Origin: an uncultured bacterium
GTDB taxonomy: Bacteria; Acidobacteriota; Thermoanaerobaculia; Multivoradales; JAHZIX01
NCBI GenBank assembly: GCA_965368975.1
Contig: CBDUPA010000017.1
Location: 32,001 to 96,000 of the forward strand
Length of the DNA: 64,000 bases
Reading direction: 5' to 3'
Position 1 is the first letter of the stretch. Every line of letters begins with the position of its first letter. Positions 56,334-60,288 of this stretch are shown here, one piece after another. The notes beneath the pieces are model-generated. The model did no database searches and was not told the origin of the DNA. It saw only the letters and a list, made by a program, of their open reading frames with translations. A program made the position numbers and the translations under genes.

Positions 56334-59027
56334 TCAGTTGCTCGAGTCGCTTCTCGCACCTGGCATACAATCAAGACGGGCAGATTTGAGTTGCTGCTCT
56401 AAGGAGAGCGAATGGATTCTTAGAGCTCGGAGTACGAGTCGCTTCTCGGTTTGAGTTCGATCCATGCGCTGGAGTTCCGTGGTATATTGTTGCCGCTGAG
56501 TGCGCAAGCTTGCCAGGAGCAGTGCTTGCTGCTGATAGTCGGTGATAGCAAGTGTCTCGGTGAGGAGGCTACGAACGAGCGCACTGCTTTCGGGGTGGGC
56601 TTCTTCCTTCTGAGCGCCTTGTAGGGCGAAACACCAGCTTTCGAGCACCGATGCACGCATGTCCCAAGTTTGTTTTGTTGCATTTGCGCGTTGAATCTCG
56701 TTTGCTGGGGCGGGCGGCCCCAAAGCGTCCTCTTCGAGCAAACTCATGAACTGAAGAATTGCATCTGAAGTAGATGGATGAAAGAGCCAGCGAACGAGTC
56801 TCTTGGTGCGTTGATTGCACTGAGCGCTGTCCTGAGTTATGACACGTAGCAGGGGTTGATCTGGTGGCCAGGCTGGAGACAGCGCGGAGCTTTCTGAGAT
56901 AGTTACTTCCGAAGTATAGACTCCGATAATGATAAGGCTAAAGGTCGCTGACGCAGGTAGACTCTTGGCTTCATTCCGGGGGAGCCAGTCTGACAATTGC
57001 TCTAGCAGCTCTGCCGCGTGCTGCCCTGGCTGTAGCACTCGCATCGACAGAGATTCCATTGCTAGGTCTCTGGTCTCAGGAGGGCTCTCGTCAATGAGGC
57101 GCTTCATCCAGTACAGTGCCTTGAAACGAGAGTCGAAGCGTAAGCGATCGGCAACCTCCAGAACAAGATCCAGAGCACTGCTATGCGATTTGCGTTCAAG
57201 AAAGAACGCGAGTCCCCTGTCGATCGCACTAGTGAGTTGGTGATGTTCTAGCATGTCACGCAGGAGATCTGCGATTCGCTGGTATGTCTCGGAATCTGGC
57301 TCTCTATCTAGTTTGGTTTCCAGGTCTGCTTCGTGGGCGTTATGGGAAGTAAAGACCAAGTCGAATAGCCACGATGGTTCCAGACGTCCTGGATCTGCAA
57401 TTGACATTTGAATGAACAAACGGCTTACGCATCGCACCAGCTCTGGTGATGTTTCTGGAGCTAGAAGAGTATCTTTATCTATGACGGTTTGAAATACACT
57501 GTAGATACGGCTTGTATTGTTAGACCAGAGATGCTTGAGTAATTCTTGATGGTGCTTGGGACGCTTGAACTTGACGATGTGACGTCCGTCTTCAAGGCTC
57601 ATCACGTGAAGTTTACTGTGCCGTAAGTGGCCGTCCGGGTCCTTCTTCCAGAGCCTGAGGAGAGAGCACAAAGCTTCTTGCTGGGCAATCTTGAGCTTTC
57701 CCTTCTTGGTTGTTCTTGCTATCGAGACTTTAGCTACTTGTCTTCGATCGGAAAAGACGATGGTTAGAACTCGCAGGAAATCTGTCGGGTTTATTTCTCT
57801 GAACAGAGTACCCACAAACATCGCTGTTTTGTGCAGCTCAGAGCTTTCTTCAAAGAATTCGGCAATTGAGAATTCTCGTGCTGCTTCCTCGGTTTGGTGG
57901 CGTTGTCTCTCATCAAGTTCGTCTTCCAGCTTTCTAAGCCCCTGGCAGATGACCGCTCTCAGATCTCGATAGAAGTCAGTATCGCTTCGCGGCCACAATC
58001 CTTGCTGTCTCTGGGCCAGCAGGCGTTTCTCGATTGTGTCCACCCTGCGACCAAAGTGGTCTTCTAGTATGGGGCGAAGGAATGGAATTTCGATGTGGGG
58101 AAAGGGAAAGTCATCTTTACGGCGATAGAAAGAATTTGAGATGGAAGAATCTATTTGTAGCAGTATTGATAGTTGAAGTTCTTCGAATCTGTCTGTAAGG
58201 AAGTTCGCTTTATATGGGTGGGTCATGGCGGAGTCTAAGAAGGTGCTAGCGTCACGAATGTGTATCAGTAGGACTACAGAGTCGGAGTGCCCAATCTTCA
58301 ATTCTGTGAACTGATCCAGGGAATTAGATTTATCATGATGACTGGCCGCTTCGGCTCTGTTCCCGGAACTGTTGAGTTGTTGGTGCCTTGCTTCAGATTC
58401 AGGGCTAGGTTGGTAAAAGCGTTGCTCAGCATGCCTGAACGAAGGTGAGTCCATGATTGCTCTGGCGGCAGCCTCGTTAACATTGTTAGCTGCCCCTGTT
58501 ATTGCAAGTACTCGATGTTCCAGAAGCTCCTCTGCGCATCCTCTTAATAAGCGATTTCGTTGAACCGTCGGCAAGTGATGCATTTTTTTCGGAAGAGGGA
58601 TCGTGCGATCTGTCGGTTCATAGCTCTTGGATACAGGGAGTTCAAACCGCTGAACAGAGGCTATGAACTGTTGCTGAATGGATTGCTCGTTTCGACCGTC
58701 TGATCTGGGCTTGGCTACCGTCTTGTCGGAGTTGCTCTCCTCTTTGTCTGGTGAGGGAGCGGTTGCGATGTCTTCGATTGTTGGGCTTGTGTCGGGACCG
58801 TCGAGACTTCTTCGGCTTGATTCTTTTGAACTGGAAGGTTCTGACGGAGCAGACTTATCGCTGTTTGTCTTTGGTTCCCTATTCTTGATTTTCTCAGGAA
58901 GAGTTGCTTCGTTGGCCAGATCGTCCTCTCCCGTCTGCTTCTGATTTCCAAGCTCCGTTTCCTGAGCTGGATCATTATCCGGCTTGGCTGATGCGTGCTG
59001 CCCTTGGTGGTTCTGTGTTTTTGTCAT
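56334..59027 (-). CDS. Large hypothetical protein: disordered N-terminus, degenerate STAND-like P-loop domain, helical C-terminal region
   Basis: Long ORF coupled to the CHAT stop (ATG 59027). RVLAITGAANNVNEAAA resembles a Walker A lacking GK; VVLLIHIRD resembles a Walker B; domain call is inference. Confidence 0.6.
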   Translation of the reverse strand: MTKTQNHQGQHASAKPDNDPAQETELGNQKQTGEDDLANEATLPEKIKNREPKTNSDKSAPSEPSSSKESSRRSLDGPDTSPTIEDIATAPSPDKEESNSDKTVAKPRSDGRNEQSIQQQFIASVQRFELPVSKSYEPTDRTIPLPKKMHHLPTVQRNRLLRGCAEELLEHRVLAITGAANNVNEAAARAIMDSPSFRHAEQRFYQPSPESEARHQQLNSSGNRAEAASHHDKSNSLDQFTELKIGHSDSVVLLIHIRDASTFLDSAMTHPYKANFLTDRFEELQLSILLQIDSSISNSFYRRKDDFPFPHIEIPFLRPILEDHFGRRVDTIEKRLLAQRQQGLWPRSDTDFYRDLRAVICQGLRKLEDELDERQRHQTEEAAREFSIAEFFEESSELHKTAMFVGTLFREINPTDFLRVLTIVFSDRRQVAKVSIARTTKKGKLKIAQQEALCSLLRLWKKDPDGHLRHSKLHVMSLEDGRHIVKFKRPKHHQELLKHLWSNNTSRIYSVFQTVIDKDTLLAPETSPELVRCVSRLFIQMSIADPGRLEPSWLFDLVFTSHNAHEADLETKLDREPDSETYQRIADLLRDMLEHHQLTSAIDRGLAFFLERKSHSSALDLVLEVADRLRFDSRFKALYWMKRLIDESPPETRDLAMESLSMRVLQPGQHAAELLEQLSDWLPRNEAKSLPASATFSLIIIGVYTSEVTISESSALSPAWPPDQPLLRVITQDSAQCNQRTKRLVRWLFHPSTSDAILQFMSLLEEDALGPPAPANEIQRANATKQTWDMRASVLESWCFALQGAQKEEAHPESSALVRSLLTETLAITDYQQQALLLASLRTQRQQYTTELQRMDRTQTEKRLVLRALRIHSLSLEQQLKSARLDCMPGARSDSSN

Positions 59028-59028
59028 G

Positions 59029-60288
59029 TCATGTCTTCTTCGGCGAGATGGCGTTGATGTCACCGAAATTCTGTCGGCTAGCTACAAACTGCTGTTGAAC
59101 GTGCGCATTTTCCATTGCTATGGAGAGTCCTGAACCTGCATCTGTCGCTTGTGTGAGAGTTGGAGTTTGTTTGCCTGGAGTCACTGAGTTCTTGCCATGC
59201 AGTGATCGTTCTGGCTTGGATCCGCGCTGAGGTGAACAGACTTGCCCCTCTTGGAGTCGCATGAACAGAACTGGATCGGTCCAGCGTGAAGAGTTCGGAT
59301 CATTCAAATAGAGACGATGCCGAGTCTCGTTCAAAGCCAAGTCGACATAGCCCGAATGGAGCAGTTGTTGGTAGAAGTGGCGAGGAAATTCCTCCGCAGT
59401 TTGAAAGGAGAGCGAGTCCTGCATCGATATGACAGCGGGTACTCCCTTCCGGACCAGTCGTCGCCCCAGCCCGGAGAAAGGGTTCGCGGCTGTAGCGACG
59501 CCTCCATGGCAGCTGAGGAGGTTGAGAAGCCGTAGATTCTGTGCGCCTAGGAATACCTCGGAGAAGAGATCTTCCTCGACAAAGTCACATGTTCGATCAG
59601 GAGATTCCATAACCATTGTTCCCTTCGCCGTACCCTGATGCAAGAAGCTGTGACCCACGAGGTGCAATATGTGCCATGGAGCAACGGTGAGGCGGTGCCT
59701 TAGGTGTTCCGCCGTCGCCGGAGGTTCGAGAAAGTCCCAGATTATCTGGCCACGAAAGGGGGTCAATACTTCATTCAGTTCACCCATCGTCGATTCGAGA
59801 TCGATCAAGGGCAGTCCGAACTGGTTGCTGTTCAGCGGAGCGACAATGGCTATGAGTAGTTTGGGCTTCCCGATAGCTGGTAATGCTGTATCTAGCCCAA
59901 TGGGTGCATACCTGGAGAAGGCGGTTCTGGGCGAGCGTGCGAGACTCAGCTCCGCATCGGGATCGTGCAGAGTCTCCCAGCGAAGGCTGTGCAGTTCTCT
60001 AGGTGTAGCGTGAGCCAGCGAGAGCTTGAATCTGATGCGGCTCTTGGCACTGTTCAGTGTCCGTCGATACAATGCTCGCATTGGGTCACCGGTTGGGAGT
60101 AACGCTTCAAACAGCCTAGAGCCATACTCGTGGGTCTGGTGGAGTTTGAGGTGTTTGAGTTCACCTACTAGTTCTGGTGACAAGCGAGGACGGCCTGAGG
60201 CTTTGCTGGACGGAGAACGTATCTGTCCCTGGTTCCGGTCCAGAATGTCAACTTCCAGGTCGATGAGCGAAGTTTCTGTCATGTGCAT
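59029..60288 (-). CDS. CHAT-domain (caspase-like) protease
   Basis: LHSLRWETL, RTAFSRY, HILHLVGH (His), LLNLLSC (Cys), GVPAVISMQ, FYQQL, WTDPVLF. Confidence 0.88.
   Translation of the reverse strand: MHMTETSLIDLEVDILDRNQGQIRSPSSKASGRPRLSPELVGELKHLKLHQTHEYGSRLFEALLPTGDPMRALYRRTLNSAKSRIRFKLSLAHATPRELHSLRWETLHDPDAELSLARSPRTAFSRYAPIGLDTALPAIGKPKLLIAIVAPLNSNQFGLPLIDLESTMGELNEVLTPFRGQIIWDFLEPPATAEHLRHRLTVAPWHILHLVGHSFLHQGTAKGTMVMESPDRTCDFVEEDLFSEVFLGAQNLRLLNLLSCHGGVATAANPFSGLGRRLVRKGVPAVISMQDSLSFQTAEEFPRHFYQQLLHSGYVDLALNETRHRLYLNDPNSSRWTDPVLFMRLQEGQVCSPQRGSKPERSLHGKNSVTPGKQTPTLTQATDAGSGLSIAMENAHVQQQFVASRQNFGDINAISPKKT

Follow-up and report, generated by a model that had tools for sequence, protein, structure and literature searches.

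The window analysed here is a stretch of 64,000 nucleotides of contig CBDUPA010000017.1 (GCA_965368975.1, positions 32,001-96,000), and coordinates given without a locus label are positions within it. It contains a low-GC island of five collinear genes, all on the minus strand, which encode in this order a CHAT (caspase-like) protease, a large receptor-like protein hereafter called the scaffold, a protein made of SPFH/Band-7-like repeats, and two putative stator subunits resembling ZorA and ZorB (Table 1). The CHAT protein and the scaffold have a short peptide motif in common, which sits near the C-terminus of the former and in the N-terminal region of the latter, and this pair of motifs is the subject of the present analysis. 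The two copies are probably (at a rough probability of 0.7) a private, co-evolving homotypic coupling motif that tethers a swappable effector, here CHAT, to the N-terminal arm of a constant scaffold, a reading drawn from sequence comparisons in which (i) motif pairs co-vary between loci, (ii) partners are swapped and (iii) a coiled coil can replace the motif.

The pair had been noticed in an earlier, sequence-only reading of the window, and translation bears it out since the 12-mers encoded at 59065-59100 and 58644-58679, VQQQFVASRQNF and IQQQFIASVQRF, are identical at 8 of 12 positions and differ by V/I swaps at two others. The same reading had described a low-complexity linker ahead of the CHAT copy, a disordered N-terminus ahead of the other copy and no further similarity between the two proteins, all of which stands: an S/T/P/G/K-rich linker follows the CHAT domain, residues 1-132 of the scaffold have a predicted local confidence (pLDDT) below 50 in the AlphaFold model, and the best whole-protein local alignment (score 45) is gapped and falls in an unrelated region. 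A Smith-Waterman alignment of the 45 C-terminal residues of CHAT with the 300 N-terminal residues of its neighbour scores 43, a value reached by 55 of 20,000 composition-preserving shuffles of the tail and by 57 of 20,000 shuffles of the N-terminus. In a six-frame translation of the whole genome (7,125,974 bases), the pattern QQQF[VI]AS.Q.F occurs exactly twice, in the CHAT and neighbour genes. The DNA of the two copies has diverged (20 of 36 bases are identical), the codons differ for six of the eight identical residues (AGC versus TCT for Ser, for example) and neither copy appears in the results of a DNA repeat search, and the likeness is therefore kept at the protein level.

The CHAT protein is 419 residues long by its longest open reading frame (ORF) and 417 by the gene call of the sequence collection (cluster member P0151), and it also has a PADLOC match to SAVED_CHAT (3.7e-09). 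Residues H209, H213 and C260 are invariant in all five aligned CHAT effectors of the coupled system, and we take H209/H213 and C260 to be the catalytic dyad. The C-terminus, which harbours the motif, reads ...AHVQQQFVASRQNFGDINAISPKKT. A homologue search with tail residues 375-419 had four candidates and returned the query alone, i.e. no second effector with such a tail at that sensitivity. A second small element (SIAMEN or SVSVEN) is seen 5-8 residues upstream of the main motif in both this protein (59104-59124, minus strand) and its paralogue at L005, another locus of the same genome, while KSVEN occurs 14 residues upstream of the motif in the L005 scaffold arm; these elements could be pseudo-repeats of the motif.

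The scaffold copy lies well inside its protein. The ATG of the scaffold gene (59027) comes directly after the CHAT stop codon (59029-59031), the sole other in-frame start upstream of the motif is a GTG at 59063, and there is no in-frame ATG, GTG or TTG between 59027 and the motif. Since, in addition, the conserved segment that follows the motif precedes the next Met, the extension of ~115 residues must belong to the protein. Although a word-indexed homologue search with the scaffold returned the query alone among 8000 scored candidates, phmmer against 1.84 billion representatives revealed a family of 363 clusters at E<=1e-3, of which 258 remain at <=1e-10 and 72 at <=1e-30. Similar extensions are found in these homologues, whose N-termini are disordered and end in a short N/Q/I/V/G/F/Y-rich stretch, followed by a conserved 'F.DPT..LP' segment and then by the folded part, and several members begin with a zinc-ribbon-like CxxC...CxxC motif. 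The family is rare in a sample of the host phylum, where it was found in 4 of 401 genomes, including the window's own (G000).

Homologous loci were collected by a pattern scan over one genome per species, which gave 107 candidate stretches, 26 of them confirmed, for 25 distinct loci belonging to Parabeggiatoa/Thiomargarita and other Gammaproteobacteria, Acidobacteriota, filamentous Cyanobacteria and one Desulfobulbus metagenome-assembled genome. Together with the window locus (WIN), L005 and three kin loci these make 30, or 29 distinct loci once L036 is dropped (its ORF lengths and scores are identical to those of L029); L001-L004 and L006-L010 were left out as short duplicates of regions in other loci or unrelated CHAT paralogues. 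L numbers denote loci other than that of the window, while P0028 and P0040 are members of the scaffold family. The upstream partner was defined as the longest same-strand ORF ending within 150 bases (-150 to +150) of the start of the family ORF, for which 26 of the 29 loci qualify, and L025, L033 and L035, having no such ORF, were excluded from the pairing test.

When the 45 C-terminal residues of each upstream protein are aligned with the 300 N-terminal residues of each family member, cognate pairs score 56.6 on average, versus 28.7 (standard deviation 7.6) for the 650 non-cognate pairings. In 13 of the 26 loci the cognate pair has the highest score, most of the other cognate pairs being outscored only by close same-clade relatives, and the observed cognate sum was reached by none of 100,000 permutations, which is also true for the 18 short-motif loci alone. 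Co-variation, by which the sequence-only reading had proposed to judge the pair, is thus found across the 26 loci, where the pairing is kept. Forward arms score higher than reversed arms of the same composition in 25 loci, and the exception, L038, is expected to have no pair because its effector is fused to the scaffold.

In most loci, the last 20-30 residues of the upstream protein visibly match the family arm, as illustrated by the tails and arms of L012 (NGANISGNQVNIVG and NGATINGPQANVTG), L015 (KNKGPIEKQVNIGH and DNKGPVKKQTNVAH), L019 (QSIINNAPVHNQKN and QSITNNAPQENQTN), L031 (VKDATIRDINLNVG and VKRSTVRDIHVHVG) and L037 (VNNRDVRQQYNGPT and VNNGDVRNQYNAGT), and each locus carries a motif of its own. 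The distance between the motif and the start of the family ORF varies from 16 to ~210 residues, whereas in the 11 loci that have the DPT anchor the motif ends 12-21 residues before it; the position of the motif is therefore fixed relative to the fold, not to the N-terminus. These results bear directly on the notion that the likeness is functionless, i.e. a product of chance in low-complexity sequence or a duplicated junction left from fission of a fused effector-scaffold gene. The segments are indeed compositionally biased and fused TIR-scaffold forms do exist (L038 and P0028), but the permutation, shuffle and reversed-sequence controls speak against chance, the different codons of six of the eight identical residues indicate that the peptide was conserved while its DNA diverged, and independent lineages each keep a different matched pair. 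Such an explanation, already disfavoured, is extremely improbable.

The second line of evidence is that the protein upstream of the scaffold changes from locus to locus, as classified by Pfam (and by phmmer for L005), with CHAT, trypsin-like, caspase, TIR, PNP_UDP_1 and EAD1 partners (Table 1), and a swappable partner is the hallmark of an adaptor. In L038 (8290-11016, minus strand) and P0028, TIR_2 is fused to the N-terminus of the scaffold, an 'all-in-one' form that dispenses with a separate effector gene. If the motif were a recognition or cleavage site of CHAT, present in its own tail for self-processing and in the scaffold arm as a substrate, both copies would be well placed in accessible, disordered segments, and CHAT and caspase-like enzymes are processing proteases. 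The same pairing is, however, seen with trypsin-like, TIR, PNP_UDP_1 and EAD1 partners, none of which is a CHAT protein, and loci of the CHAT type have unrelated motifs despite their homologous CHAT domains, which makes a cleavage site very improbable.

The third line of evidence comes from seven cyanobacterial loci (L020, L021, L022, L026, L027, L030 and L034), in which the element common to both proteins is a coiled coil of ~40-90 residues in place of the short motif, with pair scores as high as 142 in L022, 120 in L027, 106 in L026 and 102 in L020. That the position of the motif is taken by a matching coiled coil in these homologues favours a generic homotypic coupling over an obligatory amyloid. 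The upstream protein of L022 consists of an EAD1 domain and the coiled coil alone, i.e. it is a pure adaptor.

Table 1. Features of the window and of homologous loci (window positions unless a locus is named)
Feature	Position or loci	Strand	Basis or remark
Low-GC island, five collinear genes	51649..60500	.	GC 0.48-0.57 vs genome ~0.68-0.71 (composition profile); ~9 kb
Island flank, 5335-residue ORF	ending 51648	+	
Island flank, MiaE	61089-61769	-	
CHAT (caspase-like) protease effector	59029..60288	-	Pfam CHAT PF12770, E 7.6e-23, 81.8 bits (cut-off 24), residues 69-336
Low-complexity S/T/P/G/K/Q-rich linker of CHAT protein (residues ~345-395)	59104..59256	-	Translation; unaligned or gapped between CHAT paralogues
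Effector-side motif copy HVQQQFVASRQNF, CHAT residues 396-408	59065..59103	-	Translation; 11 residues before CHAT end
Scaffold/receptor-like protein, 897 residues, predicted STAND-like fold with degenerate nucleotide-binding site, unannotated family	56334..59027	-	AlphaFold, Foldseek
Disordered N-terminal extension of scaffold, residues 1-115	58683..59027	-	pLDDT 34-47
Scaffold-side motif copy SIQQQFIASVQRF, residues 116-128	58644..58682	-	Translation; just upstream of conserved 'DPT..LP'-type anchor and folded domain
Protein of 779 residues, ~five SPFH/Band-7-like repeats and long C-terminal helix (predicted), constant partner of scaffold family	54031..56370	-	AlphaFold, Foldseek
ZorA-like MotA/ExbB-family stator subunit, 524 residues, presumed helical C-terminal tail of ~270 residues	52473..54047	-	Pfam MotA_ExbB 6.2e-07, residues 160-247
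ZorB-like MotB/OmpA-family peptidoglycan-binding stator subunit, 270 residues	51660..52472	-	Pfam OmpA 1.7e-10; PADLOC ZorB1 1.9e-10
L005 CHAT	L005 9675-10940	-	
L005 scaffold homologue	L005 7273-9624	-	
L005 DO-GTPase2 protein, 838 residues, predicted transmembrane segment	L005 4764-7280	-	
CHAT partners	window, L005, L017, L019, L024, L028, L029, L031, L032, L037		Pfam; L005 phmmer
Trypsin_2 partners	L011, L013, L014, L027		Pfam
Peptidase_C14 (caspase) partners	L020, L021		Pfam
TIR_2 partner	L034		Pfam
PNP_UDP_1 partner	L030		Pfam
EAD1 adaptor partner	L022		Pfam
Small-gene stretches between scaffold and SPFH-repeat genes	L013 4143-4983; L015 3705-4866; L016 2923-4054; L018 4399-5533; L023 9291-10446		

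The genome of the window offers an internal comparison, as it has a second, paralogous system at L005 (contig C46 of G000, 2253-10940, minus strand), also in a low-GC island (0.46-0.53). Its CHAT protein is 43% identical and its scaffold 25% identical to those of the window, and it encodes the DO-GTPase2 protein listed in Table 1 and two proteins of 393 and 446 residues, with neither an SPFH-repeat gene nor a stator, a layout that recurs in L037 and L038. The L005 pair shares VT(A)GNIEN[LF], which is found in ...SVTAGNIENLSIS at the CHAT end and in ...QQFVTGNIENFYHG in the scaffold arm. The two paralogous motifs are distinguishable, though not wholly unrelated, as the cognate pairs of the two systems score 43 and 38, versus 35 and 23 for the cross pairings. 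Upstream of the paralogous system (L005 11261-17220), inspection of the translations by eye reveals a 1024-residue protein resembling a TPR-CHAT fusion, a pair resembling an extracytoplasmic function (ECF) sigma factor and its anti-sigma factor and, at the contig end, an ORF resembling a tyrosine recombinase.

What the motif is attached to on the scaffold side is a protein that escapes annotation: neither Pfam (E<=0.01, with the translation of a 909-residue ORF) nor PADLOC has a match for it, and NCBIfam at E<=0.01 matches neither the 897-residue protein nor its homologue in L011. AlphaFold (60-row alignment) gives a mean pLDDT of 80.5, with residues 140-897 well folded, and the model runs from five parallel strands (173-314) through a helical part to a beta-hairpin module (429-487) and on to helical repeats that end at residue 887. 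The best PDB matches of this model in Foldseek are SAMD9 (3.1e-06, probability 1.00), Avs4, 6mfv (STAND-TPR), Avs3, Apaf-1, CED-4, EfAvs5 and NLRPs. VIA-align values are middling for residues 136-549, i.e. Z 8.8 with AVAST5 (root-mean-square deviation (rmsd) 12.8 for 239 aligned residues), 8.2 with SAMD9 and 8.0 with EfAvs5, and are as high for the first domain alone, residues 139-376 giving Z 9.8 (rmsd 5.3 for 211 aligned residues) with the AAA+ protein Hsp104. A language-model look-up (Atlas) places the scaffold nearest nSTAND3 clusters (0.95), which is a lead only, and sequence-profile searches of PDB chains with the scaffold and SPFH-repeat alignments yielded nothing below E 0.2.

At the Walker A position, the sequence is LAITGAANNVNEAAA in the scaffold and R[IV]L.[IL]SC.D......AAY in the family consensus, without GK[ST], while G....GK[ST] occurs anywhere in the sequence in just 4 of 150 family representatives. 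Because the GK[ST] of Walker A is missing, the scaffold very probably lacks canonical nucleotide binding. The earlier description of the protein as STAND-like thus survives in part. Judging from the structural models, the scaffold is STAND-like in fold, as indicated by the Foldseek matches to SAMD9, Avs4, Avs3, Apaf-1 and CED-4, but it has none of the Pfam, NCBIfam or PADLOC matches, nor the Walker A motif, of a canonical STAND protein or NOD-like receptor (NLR).

The constant partner of the scaffold family, the 779-residue protein, has no match in Pfam (including Band_7), NCBIfam or PADLOC either. In its model (pLDDT 79.7), a unit consisting of a three-stranded sheet and helices recurs about five times and is followed by a long helix (651-723), and Foldseek matches it to prohibitin (1.0e-05), then to stomatin, HflK/C, flotillin, erlin and vault (probability 0.98-1.00), with low TM-scores because only one repeat aligns. 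The SPFH fold is known for ring or cage assemblies at membranes, and the 779-residue family is, on the strength of these models, a candidate ring or cage former. The SPFH-repeat family always neighbours the scaffold family: jackhmmer finds its homologues beside the scaffold gene in 24 of 28 distinct loci, and the others are L012, which is on a short contig, and L005, L037 and L038, which have a DO-GTPase2 protein instead. In L016 and L033, the scaffold and SPFH-repeat genes are broken into several ORFs, which are possibly decaying copies or assembly errors. Parabeggiatoa-type loci have two small genes between the scaffold and SPFH-repeat genes, encoding proteins of 159 and ~125-232 residues; Pfam has no match for the 159-residue product of L013 and, for the 232-residue product of L015, an AF2212-like match just over the cut-off and one sub-threshold match, nothing else.

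As for the stator genes, 11 PADLOC ZorA models match the 524-residue protein (6.2e-08 to 1e-03), two of the alignments spanning residues 171-483 and 175-480, while its NCBIfam ZorA scores (26-33 bits) are far below the cut-offs of 250-750. A gapped likeness (score 32) between the C-terminal tip of this protein and the scaffold motif is put down to chance, there being no cognate excess across 10 loci.

The conserved neighbours raise the possibility that both motif copies compete for one third site, on the SPFH-repeat protein, the ZorA tail or the folded part of the scaffold, in which case the scaffold copy would be a displaceable internal decoy. Like sequences can mean a like ligand, and the scaffold copy sits on a flexible arm beside the folded domain, with partner genes that are conserved. 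However, motifs differ completely between loci in which the SPFH-repeat and scaffold folds are conserved, and a third site would need to co-vary with them. Moreover, (i) the ZorA tail has no cognate likeness to the scaffold arm in the 10 loci compared (cognate mean 28.1 versus 26.3, and 32.3 versus 32.3), (ii) the window motif is matched elsewhere in the island proteins only at weak scores of 18-32 and (iii) the coiled-coil versions point to self-pairing. Competition for a third site is therefore improbable.

Comparison with published systems places the coupled pair near several known ones. The closest parallel is provided by bacterial amyloid signalling sequences (BASS), which are motifs of ~25 residues in which Q, N, G, V and I are reported to be over-represented and K, P and L to be scarce, with pseudo-repeats in some, and whose effector/NLR pairs include CHAT and TIR effectors (Dyrka 2020, 10.1101/2020.01.06.895854). 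As in BASS systems, a short motif is common to the C-terminus of an effector and the N-terminal region of an adjacent, collinear receptor-like protein, the genes abut or overlap, and the hosts, among them Parabeggiatoa, Thiomargarita and filamentous cyanobacteria, are for the most part filamentous or multicellular. The family-level composition is partly similar, as the best-matching 14-residue windows of the 18 short-motif loci show an excess of N (3.6x), Q (1.8x), T (1.8x), V (1.7x), G (1.6x) and I (1.35x) and a shortage of L (0.18x), and pseudo-repeats are seen in some members, such as the N/Q/G/I-rich ones at the N-terminus of P0040. By contrast with BASS systems, the receptor belongs to an unannotated STAND-like family with no Walker A motif, instead of being an NB-ARC or NACHT protein, 16-210 disordered residues precede the motif, a coiled coil takes its place in some members, and the operon includes SPFH-repeat and ZorAB-like genes. 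Because its receptor has no NB-ARC or NACHT domain, the pair falls outside the NLR-BASS set as defined. The BASS-type placement that had been claimed for it accordingly holds for the effector C-terminus and the adjacent receptor-like protein, but not for the extreme N-terminus, since the motif lies behind ~115 translated residues.

A strict BASS-type mechanism, in which the copy on the activated scaffold would, as a prion-like amyloid-forming sequence, adopt a cross-beta fold that serves as a template for conversion of the CHAT tail, with activation of the protease by the fibril so formed, is a special case of homotypic coupling. While the arrangement, composition, pseudo-repeats, taxa and effector classes just described are those expected of it, several features do not fit: the identical core in the window, although Q-rich, is 12-13 residues long, versus ~25, and contains no G and, on the CHAT side, a single N; the same family windows show no depletion of K (1.24x) or P (1.38x); the motif is internal; residues 113-126 of the scaffold are drawn by AlphaFold as a helix, at low confidence (pLDDT 43-47); and the seven loci with a coiled coil in the same place imply that amyloid is not needed for the function of the family. 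An amyloid is a possible form for the coupling to take, but less likely than not.

The second published parallel is the antiphage Bab/Agp pair with BASS11, for which abortive infection has been demonstrated, and whose motif reportedly occurs with TIR, CHAT and EAD7 as well (Ibarlosa 2024, 10.1101/2024.11.07.622273). There as here, two adjacent genes share a terminal motif and the receptor is not a classical NLR (TPR-GreA/B-C-PIN in Bab/Agp). The differences are that Bab/Agp has a small pore-forming Bell-like effector and a receptor motif at residues 2-25, whereas the system described here has a protease, a motif internal to a long arm and three further genes.

A third parallel is EAD coupling, in which the same adaptor is found on the effector and on the N-terminus of a constant core, adjacent-gene copies being closest to each other (Kaur 2020, PMC7159879). 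The effector repertoire (caspase/CHAT, trypsin, TIR and PNP) and an inactive STAND core are shared with EAD/iSTAND systems (Kaur 2020, PMC7159879; Kaur 2021, PMC8195603), and, as in EAD systems, the upstream protein of L022 has a true Pfam EAD1 domain and the paralogous locus L005 a DO-GTPase2 protein. However, EADs are globular domains of ~90 residues, whereas the adaptor here is a peptide of 12-30 residues or a coiled coil, and iSTAND and iSTAND2 work with MoxR-vWA pairs (PMC7159879, PMC8195603), which are not found among the island genes. Pfam matches over these five genes are limited to CHAT, MotA_ExbB and OmpA, with no MoxR or vWA, and because both are absent the island is not an iSTAND ternary system. 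In the main texts of PMC7159879 and PMC8195603, MotA and Zorya have no occurrence, nor has ExbB in that of PMC7159879, or Band-7 and SPFH in that of PMC8195603.

The stator genes recall Zorya, in which ZorAB signals to soluble effectors (Hu 2024, PMC11946911). Zorya types I-III combine a MotA-family protein that has a long helical cytoplasmic tail with a MotB/OmpA partner and type-variable soluble components (PMC11946911; Mariano 2025, PMC11890865), an arrangement that the island genes resemble. Unlike in Zorya, where the soluble partners are ZorC/D, ZorE or ZorF/G, the stator is here combined with an SPFH-repeat protein, a STAND-like scaffold and a protease. The effector genes are upstream of the stator genes, and the matches to ZorA and ZorB models are weak (PADLOC E 1e-7 to 1e-10). 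PADLOC matches neither the 909-residue nor the 779-residue protein to ZorC/D, ZorE or ZorF/G, and the protease only to SAVED_CHAT. Because ZorC-G are absent, the island is not a Zorya system of types I-III.

Outside bacteria, the apoptosome invites comparison, since it has a STAND-fold hub, a caspase-family protease and a homotypic element on an N-terminal arm, the CARD of Apaf-1 recruiting the CARD of procaspase-9. The coupled pair resembles it in having a STAND-like hub that would recruit a caspase-family protease via a homotypic element on a flexible N-terminal arm, and differs in that this element is a short peptide, not a six-helix death-fold domain, and that the hub has no intact nucleotide site. 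A constant hub whose enzymatic heads can be exchanged, and are attached either by fusion or by a like-with-like element, is also how NLR/BASS pairs and EAD systems are built. A literature search, with subscription journals and supplements outside its reach, found no description of such a system, and term look-ups in Kaur 2020, Kaur 2021 and Mariano 2025 gave none either. BASS motifs have already been published for CHAT effectors and for a non-NLR receptor, and what is new is (i) the hub family, (ii) the SPFH and stator context, (iii) the internal position of the motif and (iv) the interchange of peptide and coiled coil within one family.

Seen in this light, the most likely role of the coupling motif is to connect an exchangeable killing or signalling enzyme to an immune-type machine linked to the membrane, one that has so far gone undescribed. 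As a proposed mechanism, an event at the envelope, or the entry of a phage, would be picked up by the stator and the SPFH assembly, upon which the scaffold would oligomerise in response to the signal from this membrane module. The motif on the flexible scaffold arm and its counterpart on the CHAT tail would then come into direct contact, in the manner of a beta-strand or a zipper, and this pairing would recruit CHAT to the hub, where protease molecules would be gathered and switched on by induced proximity or templating. CARD-CARD contacts in the apoptosome are the model for induced proximity. The scaffold may thereby nucleate and activate the protease, as the sequence-only reading had supposed. 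Complex predictions with CHAT and scaffold residues 100-520 gave scattered runs (0.11, 0.76 and 0.02, for a mark of 0.32) and count neither way on binding. More speculatively, the island might represent an undescribed, stator-coupled class of immune systems, in which, at the membrane, an ion-driven, ZorAB-like motor and a multi-SPFH cage would report phage entry to a nucleotide-independent, STAND-derived hub, and this hub would fire various plug-in effectors (CHAT, trypsin, caspase, TIR or nucleosidase) via a private, rapidly co-evolving, prion-like or zipper address label that keeps paralogous systems apart.

A number of points weigh against homotypic coupling, or against parts of this scenario. 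The window pair by itself is only moderately above chance (~3 in 1,000 shuffles), five pairs are weak among the 26 (L016 ranks 17, L017 and L034 rank 6, L028 ranks 5 and L032 ranks 4), and some of the best-scoring windows sit in the linker, not in the N/Q-rich core. Direct pairing of the two copies is something we infer from co-variation, and it is from domain content and the low-GC island only that we infer a defence role. Because the CHAT of the window scores 35 with the scaffold of L005, insulation between the paralogous systems may be incomplete. Finally, of the 20 loci that have at least 2.3 kb of sequence beyond the SPFH-repeat gene, only 10 encode ZorAB-like homologues there, so that a stator is no obligatory companion of the coupled pair.

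What death-fold and RHIM adaptors are to animal immunity, paired terminal motifs are to bacteria, where they have so far been tied to classical NLRs and to one TPR-PIN receptor. If homotypic coupling of this new hub holds true, Zorya-type stators would gain an output arm in the form of a protease or a TIR protein, coiled coils and very short peptides would prove interchangeable as adaptors, and the 26 pairs, two of them in one genome, would constitute a natural set of orthogonal 'address tags' with which to study or engineer the specific recruitment of proteins.

Concerning the borders of the island, no tRNA gene and no flanking direct repeats were found there, and promoter- or terminator-like sites around the island are as numerous as expected from shuffled sequence, with no excess. 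On one side, a single 5335-residue ORF (35641-51648, plus strand) ends 12 bases short of the last island gene. On the other, the 800 bases between the CHAT gene and MiaE (60289-61088) have no convincing gene and a GC content that climbs from 0.54 to 0.64, and are presumably the promoter region and island border.

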